From contig CBDFGZ010000028.1 in NCBI GenBank assembly GCA_965247345.1, forward strand, positions 5,435 through 69,434: a stretch of DNA of 64,000 nt, given 5' to 3'. Source of the stretch: Rhodomicrobiaceae bacterium (GTDB lineage: Bacteria; Pseudomonadota; Alphaproteobacteria; Rhizobiales; Rhodomicrobiaceae). Both the position numbers and the translations under genes were made by a program. This document shows positions 1-63,136 of the stretch, one piece after another; positions within the stretch are counted from its first letter, which is position 1; every line of letters begins with the position of its first letter. The notes under the pieces are model-generated. The model did no database searches, was not told the DNA's origin, and saw only the letters and a program-made list of their open reading frames with translations.

Positions 1-81
1 ACGCCCTGCCCGGCCTACCCAGCCGCCGCTACGCTGTTTCCCAGCGCCAGCGGCGTGGCATGTTTATAGAAAACCAGTCCA

Positions 82-142
82 CAAAAAATTCCAAGCTCCG
101 TCAGGAGCGACATCGAAACATGCCGCTCCTGACGGAGCTTGG
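82..142 (-). terminator. Rho-independent terminator candidate downstream of the GT2 gene
   Basis: Perfect 19-bp inverted repeat CCAAGCTCCGTCAGGAGCG (91-109) / CGCTCCTGACGGAGCTTGG (124-142) with a 14-nt loop. On the minus strand the stem is followed by AATTTTTTGT (reverse complement of 81-90). Confidence 0.55.
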
Positions 143-230
143 TTTGTTCGGCAATCGCGAAACTATAAATATGTCAGCCCTGACGGGCTTTCCTTGGCGT
201 CTTGGCGTTAAAAAATGTTCACGACCTCCC

Positions 231-965: not shown

Positions 966-1148
966 ACTGGCCGAGCCGGGCGCTGGCGTCCATCGCTGAA
1001 TTTGGGTTAGGTCCGACTGGAAGCTGCCGACGGGTTACTTGCGTGAAGACCACTCAGAATGCGTGGCCCTCGCACATCAGAAGGCAGGCGTGCATGAATT
1101 TTACGCTCAAATTCGCATGGCATCGCCAGTGCTAAGAATTGGTAACGC

Positions 1149-1862
1149 ATGAAACCGCCACGACACCGCCGGCAACTTGTCGGATTCACCTTGATCGAAA
1201 TGCTGGTGGTCATTGCCATCATCGGGATTCTTGCCGCCCTGCTGCTGCCCGCCGTTAATTCTGCCAAGCTCCACGCCAAACGCATCGCCTGCGTCAACCA
1301 CCTCCGGCAAACCGGCCTGGGATTCCAGATGTTCGCCAACGATCACAACGGCAAGCTGCCAATGCAGGTTTCCAATCGAGACGGCGGCACGGCAGAACTG
1401 GTCAATGTGACCAATCAGGAAAGTGCCGATTTCACCTCGGCCTACCGCCATTTTCAGGCGCTGTCCAACGAATTAGTTACGCCCAAGGTCCTGCTCTGTG
1501 CCATGGACACGCGCGTGGCAGCGGAAAACTTCCCCTCGTTGCGGAACACGAACGCAAGCTACTTCGTGAATGTCCGCGCGGAGAACGGCAGATCAACAAC
1601 CATCCTTGCGGGCGACCGCAATCTCACCAATAACTCAGCCGGCGGACAGACCGTTTTACGGCTGGACGCCAACAGCTATCTGCGTTGGACGGCGGAGTTG
1701 CATCGGTTCAAGGGCAACCTTCTGTATGCGGACGGTCATGTGGAAGAATTGAACCGCCCGGCGATTATGGCCGCGAACGCCGTTGCTGCTCTGGCATTGC
1801 CGACGGACGAGCCACCTTCGCAGACGCGGCCCATCTCAAACAGCAGCTTGCCGAAGATATGA
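1149..1862 (+). CDS. Prepilin-type N-terminal cleavage/methylation domain protein, H-X9-DG (DUF1559-like) family
   Basis: N-terminus [24 protein letters not shown] is a type IV pilin-like methylation motif. C-terminal [14 protein letters not shown] matches H-X9-DG. The last ~15-30 codons probably read across a sequence junction, so the 3-prime end is unreliable. Confidence 0.75.
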
Positions 1863-2581
1863 CGGCGCTAATCCAGCCGATCATGGCGGATTATTCCGCG
1901 CTGGTCGTGGTCGCGTCAACGACAGGGAAAAATTTCGCGCCTCGCGTCGCGGCGTTGCTCGATGTTGCGCAAATCTCCGAAGTGACAGCGGTGCATAGCC
2001 CGACGAAGTTCGAGCGTCCGATCTACGCGGGTAATGCCATGCAGACGGTGGAGGACACTCAGCCGAAGAAAGTGCTCACCATCCGCACTACAACTTTTGC
2101 CGCAACCGGCGAAGGCGGATCAGCACAAATTGTGAAACTCGATATACCTGCGGCAACGAACCTGACGCAGTTTGTGAGCGACGAACTTTCACAATCTGCC
2201 CGTCCTGAGCTGTCGTCGGCGCGTATCGTCATTTCAGGTGGGCGCGGCATGCAATCGGGCGACAATTTTCAGCTTCTGGAACGGATTGCCGACAAGCTTG
2301 GCGCGGCCGTGGGTGCGAGCCGGGCGGCGGTGGACGCTGGATTTGTCCCCAACGATTATCAGGTCGGGCAGACGGGCAAGGTGGTTGCGCCGGAGCTTTA
2401 CATCGCGGTGGGCATTTCCGGCGCGATCCAGCATCTGGCCGGCATGAAAGACGCCAAAGTGATCGTTGCCATCAACAAAGATGAAGAAGCACCGATTTTC
2501 CAGGTCGCGGATTATGGCCTGGTCGGTGATCTGTTTCAGATTTTGCCAGAACTTGAAGCTGCCCTCGACAAGCGGGCCTAA
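1814..2581 (+). pseudogene. etfA: Electron transfer flavoprotein alpha subunit, 5-prime-truncated fragment (C-terminal ~255 aa only)
   Basis: [18 protein letters not shown]...GKNFAPRVAALLDVAQISEV...SGGRGM...[68 protein letters not shown] is collinear with EtfA from about residue 60 to the end. The N-terminal domain start and etfB are absent. The upstream part of track ORF 1685-2581 has no EtfA similarity. Confidence 0.85.
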
Positions 2582-2610
2582 CGCTTAAATAATAAGGCCG
2601 GAGCCGGACT

Positions 2611-3555
2611 ATGGCGCAACTCGCCTCACAAACGTTTCGCGAAAACCCATTCCTCAATCGGAAGTCTGGCCGCGAACCGCCGACCATAAAAACCATCGGT
2701 GTGATCGGCGCCGGACAGATGGGCAACGGCATCGCCCATGTGATTTCACTCGGCGGCTATAATGTGCTGCTGCACGACATCAGCAAAGAGCGCGTCGAGG
2801 CCGGGCTTGCGACCATCAACGGCAATCTGACCCGTCAGGTCGCGCGCGGTAAAATCTCCGAAGAGGCCCGCGAAAGTGCCTTGTCGCGGATCCGGTATGC
2901 GGGTTCGTTGGAAGATCTGGGCGACTCGGACCTCGTGATCGAAGCGGCCACCGAGGACGAGGACGTAAAGCGCAAAATTCTTGTGGCGCTGTGTCCGAAT
3001 CTGAAGCCGTCGGCACTCGTTGGTTCGAACACGTCGTCGATCTCGATCACGCGTCTTGCAGCAGTAACCGACCGGCCAGAACAATTCATCGGCATTCATT
3101 TCATGAACCCGGTTCCGGTCATGGAACTGGTGGAAATGATCCGTGGCATTGCCACGGATGAGTCCACGTTCACGGCGGTGCGTAAATTCGTCGAGACGTT
3201 GAACAAGACCGTGACGGTGTCCGAGGATTTTCCGGCCTTCATCGTGAACCGCATTCTTTTGCCCATGATCAACGAGGCGGTTTACACGCTGTATGAAGGG
3301 GTGGGTTCCGTCGAAGCCATCGATCTTGCGATGCGGCTCGGCGCGCGCCATCCCATGGGGCCGCTTCAACTGGCCGACTTTATCGGTCTCGATACCTGCC
3401 TGTCGGTGATGCAGGTGCTCTACGAAGGCCTCGCCGATACGAAATACCGGCCCTGTCCGCTGCTCGTGAAATATGTAGAAGCGGGCTGGCTCGGTCGCAA
3501 AACCCAGCGCGGCTTTTACGATTACCGGGGCGAAACGCCGATCCCGACCCGATAG
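2611..3555 (+). CDS. hbd: 3-hydroxybutyryl-CoA / 3-hydroxyacyl-CoA dehydrogenase
   Basis: IGVIGAGQMGNGIAHV Rossmann motif and full-length HCDH-like sequence. GGAG lies 9 nt upstream of the ATG. The etfA-hbd order is typical of alphaproteobacteria. A ~25-aa N-terminal extension makes the start slightly uncertain. Confidence 0.9.
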   Translation: MAQLASQTFRENPFLNRKSGREPPTIKTIGVIGAGQMGNGIAHVISLGGYNVLLHDISKERVEAGLATINGNLTRQVARGKISEEARESALSRIRYAGSLEDLGDSDLVIEAATEDEDVKRKILVALCPNLKPSALVGSNTSSISITRLAAVTDRPEQFIGIHFMNPVPVMELVEMIRGIATDESTFTAVRKFVETLNKTVTVSEDFPAFIVNRILLPMINEAVYTLYEGVGSVEAIDLAMRLGARHPMGPLQLADFIGLDTCLSVMQVLYEGLADTKYRPCPLLVKYVEAGWLGRKTQRGFYDYRGETPIPTR

Positions 3556-3574
3556 CGTGTAAAGCGGCGTCGCT

Positions 3575-4477
3575 ATGAATGAGAAGCAGCTTTCCGCTGG
3601 CGTGCTGAACGTCGCGTACCGCGAATACGGCCCGGTCGATGGCTGGCCTTGTATACTGCTTCACGGCTTTCCTTACGATGTGCATGCATATGACGAGAGC
3701 AGCGCTTTACTTGCTGAGGCAGGCGCACGCGTCATCGTGCCCTATCTGCGCGGCTTTGGACCAACGCGGTTCCTAAGCCAGGATACAATCCGGTCCGGTG
3801 AACAGGCGGCGCTCGGCGCTGATCTGCTGGCATTGATGGATGCTTTGAAGATCGAGCGGTCAGTTCTTGGCGGATATGACTGGGGTGGGCGCGCGGCGTG
3901 TGTGGTGTCGGCGCTTTGGCCGGAACGGGTTGCGGCACTTGTCACGGGCAATTCCTACAACATTCAGGATATCGCTGCGTCATCCGAGCCGAAGCCCGCC
4001 CTCGAAGAAGCGGCGCTTTGGTATCAATATTACTTTCATTCCGAACGCGGCAGAAGGGGGCTTGAGCAAAATCGGCGAGAGATCGCGGAATTGCTTTGGC
4101 GCATGTGGTCGCCGGACTGGGCATTCACCGCTGAGACTTTCGCGCAAACAGCGCCCTCGTTCGATAACCCAGATTTCGTCGACGTGGTCATCCATTCCTA
4201 TCGCCACCGGTTCGGTCTTGTGCCAGGCGATCCCGCATATGCCGAAATCGAAACGAGGCTTGCGGCGCAACCGCACATAATCGTGCCGACAATCGCGATC
4301 GACGGTTCCAGCGACGGCGTAAACTCCGGGACAGCGCATCACGCTGGAAAATTCACTGGCGCTTACCAATATCACGTCTTTGAACGCGGTGGTCACAATC
4401 TCCCCCAAGAAAAACCACATGATTGGGCGCAAACGATACTGAATGCGCGGACTCTGGCTGGCACTGACCTGCAATAA
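3575..4477 (+). CDS. Alpha/beta hydrolase (epoxide hydrolase / haloalkane dehalogenase-like)
   Basis: LLHGFPYD oxyanion-type motif and GGYDWGG nucleophile elbow with Asp; 300 aa. Confidence 0.75.
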   Translation: MNEKQLSAGVLNVAYREYGPVDGWPCILLHGFPYDVHAYDESSALLAEAGARVIVPYLRGFGPTRFLSQDTIRSGEQAALGADLLALMDALKIERSVLGGYDWGGRAACVVSALWPERVAALVTGNSYNIQDIAASSEPKPALEEAALWYQYYFHSERGRRGLEQNRREIAELLWRMWSPDWAFTAETFAQTAPSFDNPDFVDVVIHSYRHRFGLVPGDPAYAEIETRLAAQPHIIVPTIAIDGSSDGVNSGTAHHAGKFTGAYQYHVFERGGHNLPQEKPHDWAQTILNARTLAGTDLQ

Positions 4478-4566
4478 ATGTCGCTTCCTTGGGCGTTAAG
4501 CGACATAAAAATGCATTCGAGCGGTAGCCAGCGGTCAATTGCATCTACGAGTTAAGGACAAACGAC

Positions 4567-5796
4567 ATGGCAAGCCACGATCAGGCTCAGCAGCCCGGCT
4601 GGAGCGACCGTCCGAACACAGCCGTCATCGTCCTCGCAAGCGGGCGCATCATTCGCGGATTTGGCGTCGGAGCCGTCGGCGAGGCCTGCGGGGAAGTCTG
4701 CTTCAACACGGCCATGTCGGGCTACGAGGAAATTCTGACCGACCCGTCCTATGCGGGTCAGATCGTCACGTTCACCTTCCCTCACATCGGGATCGTGGGC
4801 GCGAATCCGGACGATATCGAGACCACGAACCTTGTCTCCTCATCCGGTGTGCGTGGTTGCATTGTCCGGGCGGACGTGACATCGCCGTCTAACTACCGGT
4901 CGGAAAAATCTTTCGATAAATGGCTGGTCTCGCGTGGCATCATCGGCCTCAGCGGCATCGACACGCGCGCGCTGACGGTGTCGATCCGCGAAGGGGGGAT
5001 GCCGAACGCGATCATCGCCCACAACCCGGATGGCGTTTTCGATTTCGATGCGCTTTTAACACGCGCCCGGTCCTGGGAAGGGATCGACGGCACCGACCTG
5101 TGCAAGGGCGTGACGACCACGCAGAGTTACACATGGACGCAAGGGCTCTGGTCGCCGACCGGCGAGTTCAGGCCCGGACGCGAGCCAAGCTTTCATGTGG
5201 TGGCCATCGATTACGGCATGAAGCGCAATATTCTTAGGTGCCTGTCGGCGGCGGGGTGCCGTGTTACGGTTCTACCTGCCACGGCGACGGCGGACGACGT
5301 GATGAACCGTAAGCCGGACGGCATATTCCTGTCGAATGGTCCGGGCGATCCGGCAGCCACAGGCAAGTACGCGGTCCCCGTTATACGCGAGATCATGAAA
5401 ACCGGGACACCGCTGTTCGGCATCTGTCTTGGCCATCAACTGCTCGGGCTGGCGGCAGGCGGGCGAACGGTGAAAATGCCACACGGGCATCATGGGGCCA
5501 ACCATCCGGTGATGGACTATACGACGGGCAAAGTCGAGATCACGTCCATGAACCACGGTTTTGCCGTCGATCCGGCAAGCCTGCCCGACACCGTGGAACA
5601 GACCCATGTCTCGCTGTTCGATGGGAGCAATTGCGGCCTGCGCTTCAAGGGCAAGCCCGTGTTTTCAGTGCAGTATCATCCGGAAGCGTCGCCTGGACCG
5701 CAGGACAGTCATTACCTGTTCCGTCGGTTCGTAAACCTCATGAACGAGCGCGGGGGACGTGATCGCATCGAGGAAGGACTGAAATTAAGCGCTTGA
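4567..5796 (+). CDS. carA: Carbamoyl-phosphate synthase small (glutamine amidotransferase) subunit
   Basis: GEVCFNTAMSGYEEILTDPSYAGQIVTFTFPHIG, GICLGHQLL (catalytic Cys) and VQYHPEASPGP. Confidence 0.95.
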   Translation: MASHDQAQQPGWSDRPNTAVIVLASGRIIRGFGVGAVGEACGEVCFNTAMSGYEEILTDPSYAGQIVTFTFPHIGIVGANPDDIETTNLVSSSGVRGCIVRADVTSPSNYRSEKSFDKWLVSRGIIGLSGIDTRALTVSIREGGMPNAIIAHNPDGVFDFDALLTRARSWEGIDGTDLCKGVTTTQSYTWTQGLWSPTGEFRPGREPSFHVVAIDYGMKRNILRCLSAAGCRVTVLPATATADDVMNRKPDGIFLSNGPGDPAATGKYAVPVIREIMKTGTPLFGICLGHQLLGLAAGGRTVKMPHGHHGANHPVMDYTTGKVEITSMNHGFAVDPASLPDTVEQTHVSLFDGSNCGLRFKGKPVFSVQYHPEASPGPQDSHYLFRRFVNLMNERGGRDRIEEGLKLSA

Positions 5797-5864
5797 TCGA
5801 CTTCGGTCGCGTCTGTCAAGCTGAGTTTACAGTCACAGTGTCAAAAAAATTTTACACGCGACAC

Positions 5865-5881
5865 TTTGTAAGGCTTCTAAA
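5865..5881. promoter_or_regulatory. Irr/ICE-like palindromic box upstream of hemA (candidate)
   Basis: Reverse complement reads TTTAGAAGCCTTACAAA, which is 12/14 to the alphaproteobacterial iron control element TTTAGAA-N3-TTCTAAA. Lies ~110 bp upstream of the hemA ATG. Confidence 0.3.
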
Positions 5882-5990
5882 CTCTAGACTTTGCCGTTTC
5901 TTCGAGCGATGATCCGTCATCAGGCAGACCAACAGGCAGACACAAGACCTGGCACGGCCTCTGTCCCCGCGATGACAAGGACACCTCCCG

Positions 5991-7274
5991 ATGGACTATC
6001 AAGGCAAGTTTACCCAAGCGCTCGACTCCATAACAATCGAGGGCCGGTATCGTGTCTTTGCGGACATCTTAAGAGATCGCGGACAGTTTCCTCACGCTGT
6101 GCATTACACACCCGATGGCGAAAAGCCGATTACGGTCTGGTGTTCGAACGATTATCTGGCCATGGGGCAGCATCCAAAGGTTCTCGCGGCCATGCACGAG
6201 GCGGTTGACCGGGCGGGCGCAGGTTCCGGTGGCACACGTAATATCTCCGGTACGACCCATTATCACGTGGAGCTTGAGGCCGAACTCGCCGATCTGCATG
6301 GCAAAGAAGCAGCGCTGCTTTTCACCTCAGGCTATGTGTCCAACGAGGCCACGCTTTCGACTCTTGTGAAGCTGCTGAAAGGCGCGGTCATTTTTTCCGA
6401 CGAGAAAAACCACGCATCTATGATCGAGGGCGTGCGTCAGGGTGGCGGGCCGAAGCGCATCTGGCGGCATAACGATCTGGCGCATCTTGAAGGCCAGCTT
6501 CAGGAATACAGCGCCGATGTGCCAAAAATCATCGCGTTCGAGTCCGTTTATTCGATGGACGGTGACATCTCGCCCATCGGCGCGATCTGCGATCTGGCGA
6601 AAAAATACAATGCGCTGACCTATCTTGATGAAGTTCACGCGGTCGGCATGTACGGCCCGCGCGGGGCGGGCGTCGCCGAACGGGACGGCGTTATGCACAA
6701 GGTCGACATCATCGAGGCGACACTAGCCAAAGGCTTCGGCCTGATGGGGGGGTATATCGCGACGACAGCGGCGTGCGTGGACGCGATCCGGTCTTATGCG
6801 CCGGGCTTTATTTTCACCACATCGCTTGCCCCCGTTATCGTCGCGGGCGCGCTCGCGAGCGTGCGGCACTTGAAATCGAGCCAGACCGAGCGAGGCAGCC
6901 ATCAGGCACGGGCCGCCGTTCTGAAGGATCGCCTCATTGCTGCGAATATGCCCGTCATGCATTCGCCGAGCCACATTGTGCCCGTGATGGTGGGAGATCC
7001 CGTTCAGTGTAAAGAGTTGACGGACTCGCTGCTGAACCGTTTCGGTATCTACGTGCAGCCGATCAACTATCCGACCGTGCCACGGGGAACGGAACGTATA
7101 CGCCTGACGCCGGGGCCGATGCATTCCAATCAGGCCATGGACAAGCTTGTCATGGCGCTAGAAACCTTATGGGACGAAATGGGTTTGGCTCGCGGCGATG
7201 TCTGGTGCCAGAAGTGGCGTGGACGTATTGCAATTGCCGGGCAGATGGATCTGGTTGCCGCAGCGGGTGGCTAG
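5991..7274 (+). CDS. hemA: 5-aminolevulinate synthase (C4 pathway)
   Basis: RYRVFADI...[13 protein letters not shown]...GGTRNISGT...SMDGD...TLAKGFG (PLP lysine region). 427 aa, alpha-oxoamine synthase family with the ALAS-specific N-terminus. Confidence 0.95.
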
Positions 7275-7350
7275 AGCTTGCGTGTGATGGAACGTTAGTT
7301 GATTATTGCTGTTTGTTTCATTGCGCGATAATCAGACGAAAGAGGATCAT

Positions 7351-7833
7351 ATGCAGGACGCAACAGGCCCGGCCTTTGCAAAGCTCGTCTCCATGATCGA
7401 GGCGATGACGATCGGAATGCTGACCACCGAAGGCCATGATGGGTCGCTGCGGTCTCGCCCCATGGCGACACAGCGCATCGAAAACGATGTCATATACTTT
7501 TTCACACGCACAGACGCGCCGAAAGTCGATGAGATTCGCGACGACGCGAAGGTTAATGTCAGCTACGGCGATGTATCCAAGCAAACTTACGTATCGGTGT
7601 CTGGCAAAGCGACAACCGCCCGCGATCATGCGAAAATTCGTGAACTCTGGACAAAACATGCCGCACCCTGGTTTCCGGGCGGACCCAACGATCCCGCGCT
7701 CGCGCTGATGAAAATAGAGATTACGGCGGCAGAATACTGGGACGTGGACACGCGCGCGATGAAACGTCTCGACTACGATCATGCGTCCGGTGATTCCATT
7801 GCAAAAGCGACCGACCATAAAAAGCTGAAGTAA
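7351..7833 (+). CDS. Pyridoxamine 5-phosphate oxidase-like FMN-binding protein (general stress protein 26 family)
   Basis: MLTTEGHDGSLRSRPM...YFFTRTD...VSGKATT...WF pattern of the split-barrel GSP26 family. I prefer the ATG at 7351, preceded by AAGAGGA, over the track start at 7306. Confidence 0.7.
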   Translation: MQDATGPAFAKLVSMIEAMTIGMLTTEGHDGSLRSRPMATQRIENDVIYFFTRTDAPKVDEIRDDAKVNVSYGDVSKQTYVSVSGKATTARDHAKIRELWTKHAAPWFPGGPNDPALALMKIEITAAEYWDVDTRAMKRLDYDHASGDSIAKATDHKKLK

Positions 7834-7930
7834 ACGGCGGATTTGCCGTTAGTTCATCGGGTGTATTGCTCTCCCTTGACGCGTGTTCTATCTTGGCCTC
7901 AAACACCAAGGCTTTGATCTGGAGCATGCG

Positions 7931-9427
7931 ATGCGGCACATTGGACATTTCATAGGCGGTAAACGGGTTGAGGGCCGCTCCGGCCGCGTTACCGATCTTG
8001 TAGCGCCGCACACCGGAGAGCTTCAAGGTCATGTCGCGCTGGCAACCGCTGGGGAACTGTCCGAAGCCGTCGCAAACGCCAAAGGCGCACAACCCGGCTG
8101 GGCGGCACAAAATCCGCAGCGCCGCGCCCGCGTGATGATGCGCTTTCTCGAACTTATCGCCAAAGAAATGAAGCCGCTTGCGGAACTGCTGTCCATGGAG
8201 CACGGCAAGACGGTGGCGGACAGCATTGGCGACATTCAGCGCGGACTTGAGGTGGTCGAGTTCGCCATCGGCGCGCCGCATCTGCTGAAAGGTGAATTCA
8301 CAGACGGTGCCGGCCCCGGCATAGACATGTATTCCATGCGGCAGCCGCTCGGTGTCGTCGCTGGAATCACGCCGTTCAACTTTCCGGCGATGATTCCGTT
8401 GTGGAAGGCAGCTCCAGCACTCGTGTGCGGAAACGCCTTCATTCTGAAGCCTTCTGAGCGCGATCCGGGTGTCCCCATGCGTCTTGCTGAATTGTTTCTC
8501 GAAGCGGGCCTTCCCGCCGGTGTGTTCAACGTGGTCAACGGCGACAAGGAAGCCGTGGACGCGATCCTTACCCACTCGGATATTCAGGCTGTCGGCTTCG
8601 TGGGCTCCACGGCCATCGCCCACCACGTTTATTCTCTGGGAACGATGCACGGCAAGCGCGTTCAGGCGTTCGGCGGCGCAAAAAATCACATGATCATCAT
8701 GCCGGACGCGGACATGAACCAGGCGGCCGAAGCCCTGATCGGCGCCGGTTATGGCGCGGCGGGCGAGCGATGTATGGCGATATCGGTCGCGGTGCCCATC
8801 GGCGAGAACACGGCGGATGCGCTGATCGCGAAACTGATACCGCGCGTGGAAAGCCTGAAAGTCGCGCCCTATACGGACGAGAAGGCCGATTATGGTCCGC
8901 TGGTCACGAAAGGTGCGCTGCAGCGCGTGAAAGGTCTGGTGCAATCGGGCATTGACGAGGGCGCGAAGCTCGTGGTCGATGGCCGCAACTTCGTCATGCA
9001 GGGGTATGAAAATGGGTACTTCATGGGTGGTTGCCTCTTCGACCACGTGACACCTGAAATGCGCATCTACAAGGAAGAGATTTTCGGCCCGGTCCTGTCC
9101 GTGGTTCGCGCCAGGGACTACGAGGAAGGCCTCGCGCTCGCCAACAACCATGAATATGGCAATGGCGTTGCGATCTACACGCGCGATGGAGACACGGCCC
9201 GCGATTTTGCCTCGCGCGTCAACGTGGGCATGGTGGGCATCAACGTGCCGATCCCTGTTCCGCTCGCGTATCACACGTTCGGCGGCTGGAAAAAGTCGAT
9301 GTTCGGCGATCTGAACCAGCATGGCCCGGATAGCATCCGGTTTTATACGAAGACGAAAACCGTTACATCGCGCTGGCCCAGCGGTGTGAAGGACGGTGCG
9401 GAGTTTGTCATTCCCACCATGAAGTGA
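7931..9427 (+). CDS. mmsA: Methylmalonate-semialdehyde dehydrogenase (CoA-acylating)
   Basis: MRHIGHFIGGKRVEG start, FILKPSERDP, GERCMA (catalytic Cys) and PVPLAYHTFGGWKKSMFGD, typical of MmsA. GGAG precedes the ATG at 7931. Confidence 0.9.
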   Translation: MRHIGHFIGGKRVEGRSGRVTDLVAPHTGELQGHVALATAGELSEAVANAKGAQPGWAAQNPQRRARVMMRFLELIAKEMKPLAELLSMEHGKTVADSIGDIQRGLEVVEFAIGAPHLLKGEFTDGAGPGIDMYSMRQPLGVVAGITPFNFPAMIPLWKAAPALVCGNAFILKPSERDPGVPMRLAELFLEAGLPAGVFNVVNGDKEAVDAILTHSDIQAVGFVGSTAIAHHVYSLGTMHGKRVQAFGGAKNHMIIMPDADMNQAAEALIGAGYGAAGERCMAISVAVPIGENTADALIAKLIPRVESLKVAPYTDEKADYGPLVTKGALQRVKGLVQSGIDEGAKLVVDGRNFVMQGYENGYFMGGCLFDHVTPEMRIYKEEIFGPVLSVVRARDYEEGLALANNHEYGNGVAIYTRDGDTARDFASRVNVGMVGINVPIPVPLAYHTFGGWKKSMFGDLNQHGPDSIRFYTKTKTVTSRWPSGVKDGAEFVIPTMK

Positions 9428-9479
9428 GTTCGTCCACGGCGATACCTTCCGGCTCGCTGAAAGCGTTCGCTGCACTTCG

Positions 9480-9568
9480 GTCATGGCCGGGCTCGGCCCG
9501 GCTATCCAGCCTTTCGTATTGCGAGGGACGCGCGCTTCGCTCGATGGCCGGTCAAGCCCGGCGATGAC
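9480..9568. repeat. Intergenic inverted-repeat element, copy 1 (MITE/REP-like)
   Basis: Termini GTCATGGCCGGGC ... GCCCGGCGATGAC are 12/13 inverted. Shares the ATCCAG and GATGGCCGGTCAAGCCCGGC-ATGAC blocks with the copy at 39377-39464. Confidence 0.7.
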
Positions 9569-9767
9569 ACCGAATATCATATTTCCGTCGTCGTAGGACA
9601 AACTCAAGAAGGCAAGCTATCCCAAAGAGCTAGCTGCTAAACCGCGATCTCAACTCTCTGTCTAATTGTAACCACGATTGAAGTGCTGCATTTTCTCGCG
9701 ACCCGCGTGCCGAATCATGCCGGGGTTCCATCATACAAGAAACTAAGCCAACATACGGAGAAATTTC

Positions 9768-10115
9768 ATGGCTAAGGACACGCATAAGGACAAGGACAAA
9801 GAAGCGTCGCACAAAGACTCTTCGCACAAGGATTCCGCACACAAGGACACGTCGCATAAGGAAATGGCTGCTAAAGACAGTTCAGCAAAATCCGGATCCC
9901 ACGACTCGCATCCGTCGCATGAGCATCACATGAAGGCGGCTGAGCACCATCAGCACGCGATGAGCCATCATAAAGAGGCGGCAACGCATACGGCCTCCGG
10001 TCATCATGAAAAGGCGGCTCATCACGCGCACACGGCACATGCTCACACGCTTCACGCAACCCATCACGGGAATGAAGCCGCAAAGCATCACGCGACATCG
10101 CATAAGAAGAGCTAA
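9768..10115 (+). CDS. Histidine-rich low-complexity protein (hypothetical)
   Basis: 115 aa with about 29 His. N-terminal SHKD-type pentapeptide repeats and C-terminal HH-x2-A-x3-HH periodicity. GGAG lies 8 nt upstream of the ATG. Confidence 0.6.
   Translation: MAKDTHKDKDKEASHKDSSHKDSAHKDTSHKEMAAKDSSAKSGSHDSHPSHEHHMKAAEHHQHAMSHHKEAATHTASGHHEKAAHHAHTAHAHTLHATHHGNEAAKHHATSHKKS
9807..9866 (+). repeat. Four in-frame 15-bp tandem repeats inside the His-rich ORF
   Basis: tcgcacaaagactct / tcgcacaaggattcc / gcacacaaggacacg / tcgcataaggaaatg, encoding SHKDS-SHKDS-AHKDT-SHKEM. Confidence 0.85.
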
Positions 10116-10128
10116 GTCTTCCAATCAT

Positions 10129-10168
10129 ACCGGCATCGCAGGTCACCGCGCTGCCGGTCTCATTTTGC
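10129..10168. terminator. Hairpin between convergent genes (weak terminator candidate)
   Basis: ACCGGCA (10129-10135) / TGCCGGT (10152-10158) with a 16-nt loop, followed by CTCATTTTG. Abuts the stop codon of the minus-strand oxidoreductase. Confidence 0.3.
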
Positions 10169-11287
10169 GTTCGCGAGCAGCGCACTGTTTGTAATGCGGG
10201 TTACGGTCGCAGTCGCTTTCAGGATACTCGGGATCAGATACGCGGCGGCCATCGCTAAACGCTGACCCGACGGGTTGACGAGAATTTTGGAAATCGTTGT
10301 CGCTCGACCGACTTGGCGGCCTACATCCTTTTCCAGTGCCCGGTGATATTCGGTAGCAATACCGCCATTTAGGTAGGCGCGGGATGCAAGCTGAGCGCTG
10401 TGAAGCGCGATAGACATGCCGTCGCCGGAAAACGACGGAATGACCGCAGCCTGGTCGCCCAATCGCCAAAGACCATCCGGACCGGGCGCGCGATTGACGT
10501 AGCCATAGGGCAAACCGGTGATGGCCAGAGGTCTACCCTGTTGTACAATCGCCATACGCAGTCGCGCCCTCAGGTGAGGACACGCAACAATCATGTCTGC
10601 GATCAGCCGGTCGTAGGTTTTATATCGACCTGCGAACACGCTTTGCCTCACAAGAAGACATAAGTTGGCAAAACCCCCTTCAATCAATTGCAGTCCCGCA
10701 TACCCGCCAGGAAATAGAATCAGTTCCACGTGATCGCGAAGCGCGTCGGTTTGCTCGTCTGCAAGCCGCCAGTAGGATTTCAGACCGATGAGATCGTTTT
10801 GCGTGCCCGGTGGGCGCTTCCACCCTCTCAGATCATGCTTACCGGTCGCCAGAAAAGCGTCCGGAGCATCATATTCCGAACCGTCGCCTGTGACGACAGT
10901 CCAGCCGCCATCCGACTGCGTGAGTTCTTTTACCCGGGTATCTCGATGGACCTCCACCCCGGCCTTGACTGCGAGATCAAGCAGACTGTTATCAAGACAA
11001 CGGCGGGAGAGACTTCGCGCCGTGAACGGCAACGGGTATGTCACGGGCGCTCCGTCATTGACGATACGCACGTTTGAGATTGAAACGCTGTTCAAGTTCC
11101 CGAACGACACGCCAAGGCGGTCGAGATAGCTTATGCCCTCACGACTGATGAATTCGCCGCAGACCTTATCGTGGGGACCGGTTTCGCGCTCAAGCAGGAC
11201 AACGCGCCGACCGGCGCGCGCCAACTGAATGCCCACCGCGGTGCCAGCAACGCCGCCTCCCACGACGATTGCGTCATATCTGATCAT
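10160..11287 (-). CDS. FAD-dependent oxidoreductase/monooxygenase (SrsC-like, geranylgeranyl-reductase-type fold)
   Basis: YDAIVVGGGVAGTAVGIQLARAGRRVVLLE dinucleotide-binding motif followed by KVCGEFIS. Third gene of the type III PKS operon, 3 nt after the methyltransferase stop. Confidence 0.8.
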   Translation of the reverse strand: MIRYDAIVVGGGVAGTAVGIQLARAGRRVVLLERETGPHDKVCGEFISREGISYLDRLGVSFGNLNSVSISNVRIVNDGAPVTYPLPFTARSLSRRCLDNSLLDLAVKAGVEVHRDTRVKELTQSDGGWTVVTGDGSEYDAPDAFLATGKHDLRGWKRPPGTQNDLIGLKSYWRLADEQTDALRDHVELILFPGGYAGLQLIEGGFANLCLLVRQSVFAGRYKTYDRLIADMIVACPHLRARLRMAIVQQGRPLAITGLPYGYVNRAPGPDGLWRLGDQAAVIPSFSGDGMSIALHSAQLASRAYLNGGIATEYHRALEKDVGRQVGRATTISKILVNPSGQRLAMAAAYLIPSILKATATVTRITNSALLANAK

Positions 11288-11290
11288 GGC

Positions 11291-12010
11291 TCAAACTTTG
11301 ATGCGTGAAACGCTAAGGCGAAACGGCATCCATTTTTCGATTGCGACCGCTTCTCTCGCTAAACCGGCCTCACGCAAAAGTCGTTCCCAATCATAATATG
11401 TAAACGCGCTCGCAACCGAGACGGGGCCGTCGTGTCGCATGAACCGATGGCGGCGCGTTGCCCAAAATCCAATCTGCAAGGCGCGGTATGAAAGCCAATG
11501 CCGTTCAAGATCATTGATGATCCACCCGATACGGCTGTGCTCTTCCATCCAGTTGATAAAGCGCACTACATCCCCGTCGCGCAGATGATGCGTAAACAAC
11601 GAACTCATCACGATGTCGGTGTCGGCGGGGGGCCGGTATTCGAACACATTGGCCGTGACCCAACGTAATGGTCGCTTTGCCGCCGTTGCTTCCTCTGCGG
11701 CCCGCGCCGACCATGGGTTCATATCCACGCCGACGATATCGACCGCAATGCCGCGCCTTGAAGCCCACGCGTCGATCTTGCGTGACATATCGCCGTAACC
11801 GCTTCCGACATCGACGATTCTCACCCGTGAGCCGCTGGAAAGGCGACCCCGGCCGGCAAGCTTGTCGAAGAACGCCATCGTGGGACGGTATGCGAGCGAC
11901 AGCCGGTTCGCCTGCTCCAACTGCATCAGACAGCCACGGAACTCCGGGTAATCGACGGCCTCGATGTCCATGAGTTCCGGTGTCGTATCCCGGCGGGAAA
12001 AATCCGGCAT
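11291..12010 (-). CDS. SAM-dependent methyltransferase (SrsB-like)
   Basis: VDVGSGYGD motif I. The ATG at 12010-12008 lies 2 nt after the PKS stop (TAG-CA-ATG). The longer track ORF to 12256 would overlap the PKS by 244 nt and is rejected. Confidence 0.8.
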   Translation of the reverse strand: MPDFSRRDTTPELMDIEAVDYPEFRGCLMQLEQANRLSLAYRPTMAFFDKLAGRGRLSSGSRVRIVDVGSGYGDMSRKIDAWASRRGIAVDIVGVDMNPWSARAAEEATAAKRPLRWVTANVFEYRPPADTDIVMSSLFTHHLRDGDVVRFINWMEEHSRIGWIINDLERHWLSYRALQIGFWATRRHRFMRHDGPVSVASAFTYYDWERLLREAGLAREAVAIEKWMPFRLSVSRIKV

Positions 12011-12012
12011 TG

Positions 12013-13083
12013 CTATGCCGCCGTGTGGAACAGCATCGTCTCCGCGGTCAACCCCGGCCCAAAGGACATGGCACATCCCTTTTCGCCGAAGGTCCGGCTG
12101 TCGAGGAGGGATTTCAAAACGAACAGGATCGTCGCGGACGACATATTTCCGCAATTCCGCAGGACGTCGCGCGAAGCCTGAAGCGCGTTGGGGCTTAAAT
12201 TGAATGCGGTCTCGACCGCGTCGAGGATGGCACGCCCACCCGGATGCACGGCCCAAAGATCCATATCCTTTGGCGCAAGCCCACCGAGAATATCAAGCGA
12301 TTTGGCGTTCAAGGTCTCGGCCACCGATGCGGGAATACGGTTGGATAAAATCATGTCAAAGCCCTGATCGCGAATGAACCAGCCCATCTGATCGGAAGCC
12401 TCGGGCAGAACCGTCGCATAAAAGCTGTCAAGCCCCAGGCCGCGCTCGTCACCTGTGATCAATGCGGCCGCGCACCCATCCGCGAACAGGAGAAACGGCA
12501 TCATCTGCGTGAGATCGCTGGTTTCCTGAAAATGGAGCGAACACAATTCCACGCTGACCAGAAGCACCCGCGCCTTCGGCTCGGAGCGGACGATGTGCCG
12601 TGCGCACTTCAGTCCGTTGATGGCGGCATAACAGCCCATGAACCCGATAACCGTCCGCTCCACAGTAAGTTGCAAGCCGCAGCGATGGACGATCTCAAGA
12701 TCAACGCCTGGGGCGGCAAATCCTGTACAGGATGTTACGATAAGGTGCGTCACCCTCTTCGCATTATGTTCAAGGTTAAGATTGCCGACCGCCTGGGACG
12801 CAAGCGTTGGCGCATCCCGCTCATATTCCCGCATACGAACGCCCGTCGTCGGGAAATTGCCCGGTGCGTAAAAAATCTCCCCGTTGGAGGATGCGCTGGA
12901 ACAATCGGGCGCCGGGGTCAGAAAAGACCATCGGCGTTCGATTTGTCCCCGCTCCACAAGCTTGTCAAAAATCAACTGTTGGCGGTTGTCGGTCAGGAGC
13001 CGCCGCTCGAACTTGACGAAGGCATCGTGAACCTGATTCGGTGGGACAGCGGTGGCGATCTGATTGATATACGCGTTGGTCAA
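12013..13083 (-). CDS. Type III polyketide synthase (chalcone/stilbene synthase superfamily, alkylresorcinol/alkylpyrone-type)
   Basis: Cys-His-Asn triad contexts TSCTGFAAPG, WAVHPGGRAIL and GNMSSATILF. 356 aa. Confidence 0.92.
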   Translation of the reverse strand: MTNAYINQIATAVPPNQVHDAFVKFERRLLTDNRQQLIFDKLVERGQIERRWSFLTPAPDCSSASSNGEIFYAPGNFPTTGVRMREYERDAPTLASQAVGNLNLEHNAKRVTHLIVTSCTGFAAPGVDLEIVHRCGLQLTVERTVIGFMGCYAAINGLKCARHIVRSEPKARVLLVSVELCSLHFQETSDLTQMMPFLLFADGCAAALITGDERGLGLDSFYATVLPEASDQMGWFIRDQGFDMILSNRIPASVAETLNAKSLDILGGLAPKDMDLWAVHPGGRAILDAVETAFNLSPNALQASRDVLRNCGNMSSATILFVLKSLLDSRTFGEKGCAMSFGPGLTAETMLFHTAA

Positions 13084-13295
13084 TGAGTGCCTTTCGAGGT
13101 CGGAACAGGGTAACGCGTAAGGTCCGGGGGATCGGGTATCCTCATGTGTTTCATGATCTGCGCATGGCCCCCGTCATGCGCAGCAACACCGGCCGCAGTT
13201 TTAAGCATGAATACGGAAGCTGCCGGGCCAAGTTTCGTGACTATATCATTAAGACGGAATTCCACGTCCGGTTCCTCATCGATGACGGTTGCTTG

Positions 13296-14513
13296 ATGTC
13301 ACAAGGAACAGATCAAACCCGGCGGCGTTTGCAAACTGAAAACGCGCACCTTATTGCGGAAGTCATGCATCCTATCGTCATTACAATTCCAGCCCGAAAC
13401 GAAGAGGACCGCATTGGGGCCTGTTTGACTTCTATTGAGGAGGAGGCCAGGAATTACGACGGCGATGTGAAGGTTATCGTTTTTGCGAACAACTGCGCGG
13501 ATCAAACCGCGAGCCGTGCGGCGCACATGGCATCAAGGGCGGCAATCGACGTCCACGTGCACATTCAGCAATTTCCCCCTCACAGATCGAATGCAGGATG
13601 CGCGAGGGCAGCCGCATTTGCATTAGCCGCGTCGATGGCAAACAGCGCCAAGACCATTATTGTCTCGACCGATGCCGACAGCCGTCCGCAGCCGGGCTGG
13701 CTCGCGAAAATCAGCGGAGCCGTGAGCAAAGGTGCCGACGCGGTTGCGGGGGTCGTGGAGTTCGAGCCCGGGGAAACCGCGAATTTGCGGGTGCTGCCGG
13801 TACGCAGGCGCGAGGCTGAATATGCCGGATTACAGGCGCAACTTGTCGCGTGTCTTGATCCATTGGACCACGATCCATTTCCCAATCACATCTGGGCGTG
13901 GGGCGCGAATCTGGCTGTAACCCTCGATGCTTATCGTCGAGTGGGTGGCGTCCCACAGGTTGAGCTTGCGGAGGATCGCGCTTTCGTTACGCGGCTGGAG
14001 GCGTTCGACTGCAAGGTGCGCCACGATCCTGACGTTCGGGTCTGGACTTCCACCCGCACCGATGGTCGTGCGCCTGGGGGCCTCGCCGATCTTATATCTA
14101 TATACAGTCACGACCCGACCTACCCATGTGACGCTGCACTGATGCCCGTCAACAATCTTGTTCGTCATGCGCGGCTTAAGCGCAAATTTCGCCGAGCGTT
14201 TCACGACCGGACAAGATTTGTTTCACATCTCGCCGCAACCATGAATGTTTCCATTGATATAGCCGAAAAAGCGCTTGACCAGCCGTTTTTCGGTCAGGGA
14301 TGGGCGCTGCTGAGAGAGGAGTCGGCTTTGCTTCATGAGCAACGTTTATTTCCCATCGCTTTGGAAGCGGAACTGCACAAAATACGCCGCGCGCTGGCTT
14401 CGACGCTGAAGCATGAGACCGGTACAAACGTGAACGATAGCGCCAGTTTGTGGGCCGGGATTTCCGAGACTCGACCACGTTCGGCAACCATCAGCAGCAC
14501 GAAAGTTGAATAG
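13296..14513 (+). CDS. Glycosyltransferase family 2 with ~150-aa C-terminal extension
   Basis: VITIPARNEE, FANNCADQT and STDADS (DxD). The start could be the ATG at 13296 or at 13365. The track ORF from 13083 overlaps the divergent promoter region. Confidence 0.8.
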   Translation: MSQGTDQTRRRLQTENAHLIAEVMHPIVITIPARNEEDRIGACLTSIEEEARNYDGDVKVIVFANNCADQTASRAAHMASRAAIDVHVHIQQFPPHRSNAGCARAAAFALAASMANSAKTIIVSTDADSRPQPGWLAKISGAVSKGADAVAGVVEFEPGETANLRVLPVRRREAEYAGLQAQLVACLDPLDHDPFPNHIWAWGANLAVTLDAYRRVGGVPQVELAEDRAFVTRLEAFDCKVRHDPDVRVWTSTRTDGRAPGGLADLISIYSHDPTYPCDAALMPVNNLVRHARLKRKFRRAFHDRTRFVSHLAATMNVSIDIAEKALDQPFFGQGWALLREESALLHEQRLFPIALEAELHKIRRALASTLKHETGTNVNDSASLWAGISETRPRSATISSTKVE

Positions 14514-15672
14514 TTTGGACACATACTTTGCAAAAATTGAGGAATATCAGGGCGACAATGTTTTGCCGGGGGTATACTTAACTCAAATTGCAGATAATGC
14601 ATCGGTCCATGATCGTGAAGGAAGCTTTCCCGCAGGCGATATCGTGATGCTTTCAAAGCTCGGTATATTGAGGCGCACTGCGGTACTGGCAAACAGCTTT
14701 GCCACGGCCGAGATTCCGGAGACTGCGACAGTTGAACTGAAAAACCTGTTGCGAAGTCTCGGGTACGCGAACCTTAGCGTGGCGAGATTGTTTGAGGGGC
14801 ATTTCAACGCCCTGTTTCTCATCGCAAAATTCGGCTCGGAGGCCCAGTTTGCCCGAGCATTGCGCGATGCGGAACAAGGTCATCTTTTTGCGATCTGGAA
14901 TGCTGATGCGGCAAATGCCGTGCGGATCAGCAAAGCGCAACGTGAAATGGCGTTAACCGGAGCGAAGCGCTTTTGCTCCGGCGCGGGGTTCGTTAAACGT
15001 GCGCTTATCACCGCCGCCACTGATGAGGGAGGGCCATTGCTTGTTCTGGCGGAACTGGACACGCACACTAAAGTCGATCTCTCCACCTGGAAACCTCTCG
15101 GCATGCGGGCGTCGATGAGCGGCACCGTTGATTTCACCGGTGCGCCCAGCGCTCGCCTCACGATCATTGGACAACCCGGCGACTACACGCGCGAGCCATT
15201 CTTCTCGGGTGGTGCGTGGAGATTTCTTTCTGCGCAGTTGGGTGCGATAAACGCGCTTGCGGATTGCGTCCGAGAGGATTTGCATGCCACCGGGCGACAT
15301 CATGATCCCCTTCAGAACGCGCGGTTTGCCAAAACTCTGATCGCGGTGGAGACGGCGGAACTCTGGGTCGCGTCTGCCTCGAAGAAAGCGGAGGACAACC
15401 GACTGCCATCCGATCTCCGGATTGCCTATGTGGGACTGGCTCGCCATGCTGTGGAGCAAGCGAGTTACCTGGTGATGGAAACGTTGCAGCGATCTTTGGG
15501 GCTGAATGCACTCCTTCAGCCGCATCGCGCGGAGCGTATCATGCGCGATCTTTCCACCTACCTCAGGCAACCGGCACCGGACCGCGTTTTAGCGAATGCC
15601 GCGAGTTATGCGTTTGAGGCAGGCATCGCCGGTGTCCATTTATGGTCATCCCCAAATGCAGAACGACAGTGA
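14506..15672 (+). CDS. Acyl-CoA dehydrogenase-fold flavoprotein
   Basis: 388 aa with ACAD-like architecture (LFEGHFNA..., FCSGAG, MRASMSGTVDF, FFSGGAWRF). The TTG start overlaps the GT2 stop by 8 nt, so the exact start is uncertain. Confidence 0.7.
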   Translation: MNSLDTYFAKIEEYQGDNVLPGVYLTQIADNASVHDREGSFPAGDIVMLSKLGILRRTAVLANSFATAEIPETATVELKNLLRSLGYANLSVARLFEGHFNALFLIAKFGSEAQFARALRDAEQGHLFAIWNADAANAVRISKAQREMALTGAKRFCSGAGFVKRALITAATDEGGPLLVLAELDTHTKVDLSTWKPLGMRASMSGTVDFTGAPSARLTIIGQPGDYTREPFFSGGAWRFLSAQLGAINALADCVREDLHATGRHHDPLQNARFAKTLIAVETAELWVASASKKAEDNRLPSDLRIAYVGLARHAVEQASYLVMETLQRSLGLNALLQPHRAERIMRDLSTYLRQPAPDRVLANAASYAFEAGIAGVHLWSSPNAERQ

Positions 15673-16402
15673 TCTGAGGCGGGTGCAGTCGTTTCCCTAC
15701 TGCACGATTGAGGAGATTTGCGGTTCGTCCGGCCCGATCCTCGTGATGGCCCCCCACCCGGATGATGAAACGCTCGGCTGCGGTGGTCTGATGGCAGAAG
15801 CGCGGCAGCGAAAGCGCGAGGTGTACATTGCGGTTTTGACGGACGGTACTCAGTCCCATCCAAACTCCAAGGCCTATCCATCAGAACGCCTCGGTGAACT
15901 GAGACGGAGCGAATCCCGCGCGGCGGCCGTGGAACTGGGGTTAGACCCCGAGCGGATTGTATTTTTGGGGCTACAGGACGGTGGTGTTCCCCACGCGGGT
16001 TCAATTTTCAACAACGCGGTGGCGCGCATCGCCGATCTTTGTCTTGCGCGTAATGTTTCGGCGTTGTTCTGCACCTGGCGGCATGATCCCCACCCTGACC
16101 ACAAAGCCGCGTGGTCGATGGCTTTGGAAGTTCAGCAGCGCATTCCCAGCCTCAAGCTTTGGGCTTATCCCATCTGGGGATGGACACTCGATCATACGGA
16201 TGCCGCTGGCGCTGGAGCTACGAACGGGGTTCGTCTTAACATTTCGGGGCATTTACCTGCGAAGCGGCGCGCAATCTCGGGGCACGCCAGCCAGATCTCA
16301 GGTCTTATTCACGACGACTCGCAAGGCTTCAGGCTATCCGCAGAGGTGATTTCATTTTTCGAGCAGTCATTTGAGGTGTTTCTGAATGATGACAGAGACT
16401 AA
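15656..16402 (+). CDS. PIG-L / LmbE family de-N-acetylase
   Basis: VMAPHPDDETLGCGG zinc-site motif plus HPDH. The ATG at 15656 overlaps the upstream stop by 17 nt. Confidence 0.85.
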   Translation: MQNDSDLRRVQSFPYCTIEEICGSSGPILVMAPHPDDETLGCGGLMAEARQRKREVYIAVLTDGTQSHPNSKAYPSERLGELRRSESRAAAVELGLDPERIVFLGLQDGGVPHAGSIFNNAVARIADLCLARNVSALFCTWRHDPHPDHKAAWSMALEVQQRIPSLKLWAYPIWGWTLDHTDAAGAGATNGVRLNISGHLPAKRRAISGHASQISGLIHDDSQGFRLSAEVISFFEQSFEVFLNDDRD

Positions 16403-16976
16403 CCGCACCTTGTCTAAAGAGTATTTCGACAAGCTATATGATTCGTCCCGCGATCCGTGGCATTTTGAGACGAGCGACTACGAGCGCGAAAAATACCGGG
16501 AAACGCTGCAAGCTTTGCCCGATCCCCGGTATCGGTCGGCTTTTGAAGTCGGTTGCTCCATTGGTGTTCTCACGGCGTTGCTGGCCGCACGATGTGACCG
16601 CTTGCTGTCCGTGGACATTTCCACAAAGGCGCTCGAAACAGCAAAAGCCCGGTGCGCAAATCTTCCGCAGGTCTCGTTCGCGCAGATGGAAGTTCCAAAA
16701 GACTGGCCGACCGCACAGTTCGACCTCATCCTGCTGTCCGAGATGGTTTATTATCTTGACGATCTCGACGTCAACCGATTGGCAGAACGCGTCCGCCGAA
16801 GTCTTATTCCAGGCGGGGACTGCGTGCTTGTGCACTGGACGAAGCCCACGGAATATCCCCAAACCGGTGATGGTGCTGCAACGCTGTTCATCAAGGCCAT
16901 GGGAAATACAATAAAGGTGCTTAACCAACGGCGATTCGAAAGCTATCGCATCGATGTGCTGAAGCGGGTCCGGTGA
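16386..16976 (+). CDS. SAM-dependent methyltransferase, NodS-like
   Basis: DPWHFETSDYEREKY N-terminal box typical of NodS-family proteins and EVGCSIGVLT motif I. The start overlaps the deacetylase stop by 17 nt. Confidence 0.8.
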   Translation: MMTETNRTLSKEYFDKLYDSSRDPWHFETSDYEREKYRETLQALPDPRYRSAFEVGCSIGVLTALLAARCDRLLSVDISTKALETAKARCANLPQVSFAQMEVPKDWPTAQFDLILLSEMVYYLDDLDVNRLAERVRRSLIPGGDCVLVHWTKPTEYPQTGDGAATLFIKAMGNTIKVLNQRRFESYRIDVLKRVR

Positions 16977-37530: not shown

Positions 37531-37605
37531 TGGTGCCGGCTGAGGGATTTGAACCCCCGACCTTCGGTTTACAAAACCGCTGCACTACCACTGTGCTAAG
37601 CCGGC
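37531..37605 (-). tRNA. tRNA-Thr (anticodon UGU)
   Basis: Reverse complement folds as GCCGGCT-TA-GCAC-AGTGGTA-GTGC-A-GCGGT-TTTGTAA-ACCGA-AGGTC-GGGGG-TTCAAAT-CCCTC-AGCCGGC-A-CCA. 75 nt with encoded CCA. Confidence 0.92.
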
Positions 37606-40696: not shown

Positions 40697-40854
40697 GACG
40701 ACCTTTTTTACGCAAAGCCGCAGCACGTGCCAATTCACATCGCGCGGCCTTTTAGCGATTTATTTAACGTGGCTGCAAGCCGACCGGCAAATGACCACAG
40801 GATACGAGTATGAGCGGGTTCGCGATACGCCGTCAAGATCGCCGGTGTGAGCGA

Positions 40855-43506: not shown

Positions 43507-43581
43507 TCCCCGGTAGCTCAGCGGTAGAGCAAGCGGCTGTTAACCGCTAGGTCCGCGGTTCGAATCCGTGCCGGGGAGCCA
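43507..43581 (+). tRNA. tRNA-Asn (anticodon GUU)
   Basis: TCCCCGG-TA-GCTC-AGCGGTA-GAGC-A-AGCGG-CTGTTAA-CCGCT-AGGTC-CGCGG-TTCGAAT-CCGTG-CCGGGGA-G-CCA. 75 nt. Confidence 0.92.
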
Positions 43582-59595: not shown

Positions 59596-59634
59596 CGACA
59601 GTCTTCCTCCAATGATACTCAAGAGAGCGCCGGG

Positions 59635-63049: not shown

Positions 63050-63136
63050 TGGTGCCCAGGAAAGGACTCGAACCTTCACGCCCTTGCGAGCGCTAGCACC
63101 TGAAGCTAGTGCGTCTACCAATTCCGCCACCTGGGC
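63050..63136 (-). tRNA. tRNA-Leu (anticodon CAG)
   Basis: Reverse complement is GCCCAGGTGGCGGAATTGGTAGACGCACTAGCTTCAGGTGCTAGCGCTCGCAAGGGCGTGAAGGTTCGAGTCCTTTCCTGGGCACCA. Anticodon stem CTAGC/GCTAG, loop TTCAGGT and a long variable arm. 87 nt. Confidence 0.92.

Follow-up and report, generated by a model that had tools for sequence, protein, structure and literature searches.

Gene content and start codons of the divergent locus

The window analyzed here is a stretch of 64,000 nt from the genome of a Rhodomicrobiaceae bacterium (contig CBDFGZ010000028.1 of assembly GCA_965247345.1, positions 5,435 to 69,434). It contains seven genes laid out as two back-to-back operons, a minus-strand arm headed by a type III polyketide synthase (PKS; 10160-13083) and a plus-strand arm headed by a GT2-family glycosyltransferase (13365-16976). 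An original prediction, made from the sequence alone, had proposed that the seven genes form one cluster for a phenolic glycolipid, with a shared control region between the arms. The gene identities and the divergent layout that it gave are borne out by Pfam and NCBIfam searches, and so is its statement that the cluster contains no regulator gene, as none of the seven was annotated as one by these databases. The genes of the PKS arm are spaced by 2-3 nt and those of the GT2 arm (the cassette) overlap at their ends, so that each arm has the appearance of a single operon. All features, including the riboswitch and tRNA genes found elsewhere in the window, are collected in Table 1.

Table 1. Features of the divergent locus, and RNA features found elsewhere in the window.
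Feature	Coordinates	Strand	Remarks
FAD-dependent oxidoreductase, geranylgeranyl-reductase-like	10160..11287	-	last gene of PKS operon; Pfam DAO/FAD_binding_3, NCBIfam GG-red-SF below cutoff; GxGxxG visible
Class I SAM methyltransferase	11291..12010	-	middle gene of PKS operon; Pfam Methyltransf_25
Type III polyketide synthase, alkylresorcinol / alpha-pyrone synthase type	12013..13083	-	TTG start; Pfam Chal_sti_synt_N and Chal_sti_synt_C
Divergent intergenic region, 281 bp	13084..13364	.	212 bp if ATG 13296 is used
Predicted sigma-EcfG-type promoter, GGAAC-N16-CGTT, for the GT2 cassette	13305..13329	+	exact consensus match
GT2-family glycosyltransferase with conserved C-terminal extension	13365..14513	+	first gene of cassette; Pfam Glycos_transf_2
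ACAD-fold flavoenzyme	14506..15672	+	NCBIfam SfnB-like 9e-14, below cutoff
PIG-L/LmbE-family N-acetylglucosaminyl deacetylase	15596..16402	+	Pfam PIG-L 6e-26; start may be internal ATG 15656
NodS-like SAM-dependent methyltransferase	16386..16976	+	last gene of cassette; Pfam NodS 3e-22, NCBIfam NodS 4e-23, below equivalog cutoff
tRNA gene	37534..37605	-	Rfam
SAM_alpha riboswitch	40732..40808	-	Rfam, 67.9 bits
tRNA gene	43507..43578	+	Rfam
tRNA gene	63053..63136	-	Rfam

The TTG codon at 13083 is the first start codon past the upstream stop, so a PKS start further upstream is impossible. The N-terminus of the protein is conserved from residue 4 on (alignment A2), and a TTG start behind a GAAAGG-like ribosome-binding site is also found in relatives. 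The downstream methyltransferase likely starts at ATG 12010, 2 nt past the PKS stop codon. On the other side of the gap, the GT2 reading frame is open from 13083 and has in-frame ATG codons at 13296 and 13365, which give gaps of 212 and 281 bp, in agreement with the approximately 210-280 bp originally estimated. The ATG at 13365 is preferred, since 19 homologues align from MHPIVITIPARNEE onward, with the closest relative beginning MRPIVIAIPARNEE (alignment A1), and it is further supported by the predicted promoter (see later), which sits downstream of the alternative ATG 13296. On the basis of the homologue alignment and the promoter position, the GT2 protein has 382 aa, and the public gene call for it (P0001; 449 aa, 13164-14513 on the plus strand, with its start at 13164) is probably too long.

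The PKS operon

The catalytic triad of the PKS (C119, H280, N313) is invariant in alignment A2. More than 8000 homologues were found, the closest named ones being from Rhodomicrobium (66-68% identity), and the relatives with structures in the PDB include stilbene synthase and M. tuberculosis PKS18. At 51 of 82 PKS loci the synthase gene is followed by the methyltransferase and then by a homologue of the FAD oxidoreductase. Operons that combine these three enzymes have been described and are widespread (S. griseus srs, cyanobacterial hidABC, Planctomycetota), and the alkylresorcinols expected as their products are subsequently methylated and hydroxylated (oxidised) to quinones (PMC10896814). 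By its gene content, the PKS arm of the window is of this known kind, an srsABC/hidABC-type module with alkylresorcinol or alkylquinone as its predicted product. Like srsABC of Streptomyces griseus, hidABC of cyanobacteria and the planctomycetal operons, it encodes these three classes of enzyme in a single compact operon, but the gene order (PKS-methyltransferase-oxidoreductase) differs from that of hidABC (methyltransferase-oxidoreductase-PKS).

The methyltransferase of the window is 71% identical to the 240-aa product of the gene that follows the PKS in locus L140 (GCA_041740655.1, JBGSLP010000045.1; 795-6924). In that genome, the PKS-methyltransferase-oxidoreductase trio lies between a phage portal gene and genes for a prohead protease and capsid, all on one strand, and looks like an insertion into the head module of a gene-transfer agent or prophage.

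The glycosyltransferase cassette

Homologues of the GT2 protein number 620, the closest with 56% identity, and their alignment (A1) displays a TDAD motif along with many other invariant residues, while matches of the family profile to PDB entries were too weak to point to an acceptor. The flavoenzyme encoded by the second gene has no Pfam match of its own. Its family profile matched DszC and MsuC at about 1e-23, the nitrososynthases KijD3 and ORF36 at 1e-16 to 1e-17, and classical acyl-CoA dehydrogenases (ACADs) at 1e-17 or weaker; by these profile comparisons, the enzyme is nearer to monooxygenases of the DszC/MsuC/nitrososynthase type than to true ACADs. The PIG-L protein gave weak NCBIfam matches to BshB1/BshB2 and MshB, and PDB matches to diacetylchitobiose deacetylase and BshB.

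The transfer of GlcNAc followed by deacetylation by a PIG-L enzyme is a known biosynthetic logic, used by MshA/MshB for mycothiol, BshA/BshB for bacillithiol and HpnI/HpnK for hopanoids, and in Nod factors the deacetylated glucosamine is N-methylated by NodS. The cassette has in common with these pathways, and with NodB/NodS, the pairing of a glycosyltransferase with an amine-exposing PIG-L deacetylase; its NodS-like methyltransferase could N-methylate the amine, as in Nod-factor tailoring. It differs from the known GlcNAc-deacetylase pathways in having a GT2 rather than a GT4 glycosyltransferase, in the additional ACAD-fold monooxygenase, and in scores that fall far below the NCBIfam equivalog cutoffs (50.7 bits against 195 for BshB2, 25.5 against 224 for MshB, 82 against 300 for NodS and 43.7 against 379 for HpnB). 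Going by the family assignments, the most likely order of reactions would be the transfer of GlcNAc to an acceptor, deacetylation to the free amine, and then N-methylation and/or oxygenation.

All four cassette genes are present at about 48 of the 59 GT2 loci, in several orders and orientations, and in these the NodS-like gene adjoins the other three. That the genes stay together despite rearranged order and orientation indicates that the cassette is a functional module. Many of the cassette-bearing genomes (L001-L059) are lichen-associated MAGs or isolates, including Lichenihabitans, Caulobacteraceae, Sphingomonadaceae and Polymorphobacter from Megaspora. Outside the Alphaproteobacteria, the cassette is found in Isosphaeraceae, Gemmatimonadaceae, Solirubrobacteraceae, Advenella and Deinococcus.

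A predicted sigma-EcfG promoter in the intergenic region

The gap between the two arms carries a GGAAC-N16-CGTT motif, without mismatch and entirely intergenic, which ends about 35 nt before the preferred ATG of GT2 (13365). [quoted passage not shown] EcfG occurs in Alphaproteobacteria, and the host of the window belongs to this class, as shown by the SAM_alpha riboswitch in the window and by the Hyphomicrobiales origin of the nearest relatives of either arm. The window has only two exact matches to GGAAC-N16-CGTT in all, of which the second (59303-59327, plus strand) runs antisense inside a 671-aa proline-rich ORF (57607-59622) and is probably due to chance.

No counterpart was seen on the PKS side of the gap, where neither an exact EcfG motif nor one with a single mismatch occurs at a sensible position. 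A degenerate EcfG-like site for the PKS, consisting of GGAAC at 13275-13271 (minus strand) and N17-CTT, carries little conviction at 188 nt ahead of the PKS start codon, although control of the PKS by EcfG through a degenerate site of this sort is conceivable; its GGAAC is 30 nt from the -35 element of the cassette promoter. A further candidate on the minus strand, GGAAC-N18-GTT at 11362-11387, falls within the coding sequence of the methyltransferase, 75 nt ahead of the oxidoreductase start, and is found at one of 53 loci, consistent with chance. A comparison of 9-mers from the sequences that precede the PKS gene in 12 relatives showed no conservation outside the ribosome-binding region.

A sigma-70 scan of the gap returned no site, and an Rfam search no family. 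The original prediction had noted that a convincing palindromic operator could not be recognised by eye, and a systematic repeat search agrees: the gap contains a 13-nt direct repeat in two copies 41 nt apart (CATGAATACGGAA at 13206-13218 and CATTAAGACGGAA at 13247-13259) and short imperfect palindromes, all of them weak and at chance level. The direct repeat sits where the PKS promoter would be expected, and may be either a chance occurrence or the site of a regulator.

These results do not sustain the proposed shared control region, as the gap holds a predicted alternative-sigma promoter that serves the cassette only, and no shared operator was found. The reading that is best supported by the whole of the evidence, and that we consider probable, is that the arms are two autonomous operons that happen to lie side by side, the cassette having a predicted sigma-EcfG promoter and the PKS operon a promoter of its own, so that the gap would consist of two separate promoter zones rather than one shared operator. 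Under stress, the PhyR-NepR-EcfG partner switch would free the sigma factor. RNA polymerase carrying EcfG would then start a few nt after 13329, and the transcript would cover the four translationally coupled cassette genes, while the PKS operon would be driven from a separate putative promoter somewhere in 13084-13300. Control of the cassette is thus probably exerted by an alternative sigma factor, and since such a factor acts in trans, neither a regulator gene nor an operator would be expected at the locus.

Conservation of the promoter motif and stress-related neighbours

The promoter motif was examined in other genomes by a search for GGAAC-N17-18-GTT in the 200 nt that precede each gene, after removal of near-duplicate loci. 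The sample comprised 59 genome loci with the GT2 family, further loci from exact-protein look-ups, and plasmid records. The motif precedes GT2 at 12 of 62 non-redundant loci, against 0.66 expected (P~8e-12), and the flavoenzyme gene at 13 of 47 (0.40 expected, P~6e-16). The loci with a motif before the flavoenzyme gene, mostly from Sphingomonadales, are exactly those in which this gene is the first of a separate transcription unit. The motif stands before one or more cassette genes at 29 of the 62 non-redundant loci, and roughly half of the cassette loci lack it in its strict form. The closest relative of the cassette, L001 (a Hyphomicrobiales MAG with 57% identity and the same gene order), has GGAAC-N17-GTT at a matching distance, 38 nt before the GT2 start. 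Enrichment before the PKS gene is weak (three of 71 non-redundant loci, 0.65 expected, P~0.03).

The genes found near the cassette in other genomes are also informative. A large KatE-like catalase and an SDR of the general-stress type are encoded near it at 15-16 loci from several orders (L010, L022, L028, L030, L031, L035, L036, L041, L042, L044-L048, L054), and on a B. japonicum plasmid (L156, 1-4643) the cassette adjoins genes for an ATP-dependent ligase, LigD and Ku, the last of which is preceded by an EcfG motif. Catalase and ku-ligD have been named as direct GSR targets in Sphingopyxis (PMC7083833). Catalase, SDR and Ku/LigD are typical members of GSR regulons, and so a stress role for the cassette agrees with its neighbours. 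The locus thus resembles known EcfG (ECF15) GSR promoters in its exact consensus, in the position of the site about 35 nt upstream of the gene, and in the regulon-type neighbours seen in relatives; it differs in that the four-gene cassette was not found among the regulon members named in the GSR literature searched, and EcfG dependence is here predicted from motif and context. Taken at this level, the cassette is likely a member of the EcfG regulon and a widespread, conserved operon.

Inheritance of the two arms

The neighbourhood of each module was searched to a distance of up to 10 kb. Of the 44 cassette loci whose sequence reaches 3.5 kb or more upstream of GT2, none has a homologue of the PKS, methyltransferase or oxidoreductase within 10 kb, and four more cassette loci (from Aureimonas, Oryzicola and two others) also lack PKS-arm homologues; the contig of a further homologue, P0243, breaks off within the cassette. 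In the opposite direction, the upstream flank extends for 4.5 kb or more at 28 PKS loci, and just one of these (L081) has the cassette. Neither arm is accompanied by the other in its nearest relatives: the cassette is missing beside the nearest PKS relatives (L140, 74%; L149, 69%; the Rhodomicrobium-like L146-L148, 68%), and the PKS is missing beside the nearest cassette relative, L001. The flanks of the window show no synteny with those of either L001 or L140; they consist of housekeeping genes, and the adjacency of the two arms is lineage-specific. Among plasmid records, 19 match GT2 and 35 match the PKS, and both are matched in only three, all from Deinococcus, so that no alphaproteobacterial plasmid in the set matches both.

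The counts bear directly on the view that the seven genes encode one pathway, in which the PKS trio would make an alkylresorcinol or alkylquinone, GT2 would add GlcNAc and the other cassette enzymes would tailor the amino sugar. The immediate adjacency of the arms in the window speaks for it, but the link is absent from all of the approximately 48 cassette loci and present at only one of the 28 PKS loci, and no shared regulatory element was found by the repeat search of the gap or the 9-mer comparison. Moreover, the four cassette genes stay linked in genomes with no PKS close by, and the acceptor of the cassette is therefore probably a common metabolite. As a general account of the seven genes, a single pathway is unlikely; its product, a stress-induced amino-sugar phenolic lipid, would be conceivable in the window organism and in the two described below, though with a similarly low probability, and not as the output of a conserved cluster.

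Genomes with both arms in proximity

The exception among the PKS loci, L081, comes from a metagenomic organism that was recovered in several samples (the same organism as L150-L152). Here, the seven genes follow each other on one strand in the order GT2-flavoenzyme-PIG-L-NodS-PKS-methyltransferase-oxidoreductase, with an EcfG motif ahead of GT2 and a gap of 155 bp, without a terminator-like site, before the PKS. The run is located directly 3' of an operon for alternative complex III, SCO1 and a caa3 oxidase on the same strand; in L150 (JGI Ga0180219_1000102, 1-14425), the genes preceding the cassette and PKS trio encode alternative complex III proteins (NrfD, ActD, cytochrome c), SCO1 and a caa3-type oxidase (COX2-cytochrome c, COX1, COX3). 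These respiratory neighbours may be relevant to polyketide quinones as electron carriers.

Plasmid p380k of Deinococcus sp. AJ005 carries a PKS-methyltransferase-oxidoreductase-GT1 operon and, 5.3 kb away, a complete cassette, and the spacer between the two modules contains genes for an MFS transporter and SMP-30, glf and a GT1 gene. In D. radiodurans, the operon has the order PKS-methyltransferase-oxidoreductase-GT1-PLD, where PLD is a phospholipase D-like gene, and a lone GT2 relative is found 42 kb away. The running of the PKS trio into a GT1/MGT glycosyltransferase gene in these operons (L154, 5998-11711; L153, 2481-6866) suggests that Deinococcus makes glycosylated phenolic lipids. Compared with the window, the Deinococcus operons have the same PKS trio (37-39% identity) and a glycosyltransferase inside the operon, but this is of a GT1/MGT type, for which the window has no gene, and the host belongs to a different phylum, without EcfG. 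The GT1/MGT enzyme is unrelated to the GT2 of the cassette and was found in no other fetched locus.

Proximity of the two modules is therefore seen in three lineages (the window, L081 and AJ005) with three different geometries. By a rough estimate, the chance of finding the cassette within 10 kb of a given locus is at most about 0.003-0.005 per cassette-bearing genome, and the number of chance co-locations expected among the loci inspected is well under 0.1. Since three cases exceed this rough expectation, the modules likely have some affinity for each other, whether biosynthetic or only regulatory or ecological. For the original prediction, these data give a divided outcome. The seven genes are not a co-inherited cluster in most genomes, and the independent occurrence of the arms is of the kind that it had named as evidence against itself; it had coupled this with the arms never being adjacent elsewhere, and they are in tandem in L081 and 5.3 kb apart in AJ005.

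The three cases also add to both sides of the single-pathway argument. The one-strand run of L081, with its short gap and the motif before GT2, and the AJ005 arrangement, with glf and another glycosyltransferase between the modules, are in its favour, as is the rough chance expectation, and the glycosyltransferase inside the Deinococcus PKS operons makes glycosylation of such lipids plausible; against it, what these operons have recruited is a GT1 and not the GT2 of the cassette. At the other extreme, the adjacency could be pure coincidence that means nothing for function or regulation, with expression of the PKS operon under unrelated conditions. The lineage-specific adjacency between housekeeping flanks, the lack of an EcfG motif on the PKS side of the window and the weak enrichment at PKS loci would all fit, but the proximity recurs in two other, unrelated lineages, EcfG motifs do occur at a few PKS loci (L091, L085, L093, L132), and alkylresorcinol synthesis in Azotobacter is under the control of the stationary-phase sigma factor, being RpoS-dependent via ArpR (PMC4824345), and so is linked to stress or dormancy. 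We regard complete coincidence as quite improbable. The preferred reading remains that of two autonomous operons, and any link between them more likely reflects a shared context of stress or dormancy than an obligatory common pathway.

Relation to known phenolic lipids, and a possible product

Mycobacterial phenolic glycolipids and the alkylresorcinols of Azotobacter cysts resemble the product originally proposed in being phenolic lipids able to carry sugars. The mycobacterial compounds are made by type I PKSs, and Azotobacter uses arsABCD together with a type I FAS; neither system has the cassette. Galactosides of the Azotobacter cyst alkylresorcinols were reportedly described by Reusch and Sadoff (1979), and on this precedent the original statement that glycolipids based on a type III PKS had not been described in Proteobacteria is doubtful.

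Both the PKS arm and the predicted EcfG promoter belong to known kinds, and the most useful new point is the predicted place of the cassette in the GSR regulon. A four-gene operon (GT2, DszC-like flavoenzyme, PIG-L and NodS-like methyltransferase) that is conserved in many Alphaproteobacteria is thereby flagged as a likely GSR member, which offers a concrete, testable starting point for work on stress physiology. The cassette itself, irrespective of the PKS, may make a general-stress metabolite across the Alphaproteobacteria.

The organisms to which the glycolipid idea could still apply are three in number, the host of the window, that of L081 and AJ005. In these, the stress-induced cassette might act on the lipid of the PKS trio, by GlcNAc transfer, deacetylation, N-methylation and flavin-dependent N-oxygenation, to give an amino-sugar-decorated alkylresorcinol or polyketide quinone in stress or dormancy, a proposal that we hold to be a long shot. 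If it were true, a glycosylated polyketide quinone would fit the respiratory branch of alternative complex III and caa3 oxidase encoded next to the seven-gene run of L081.
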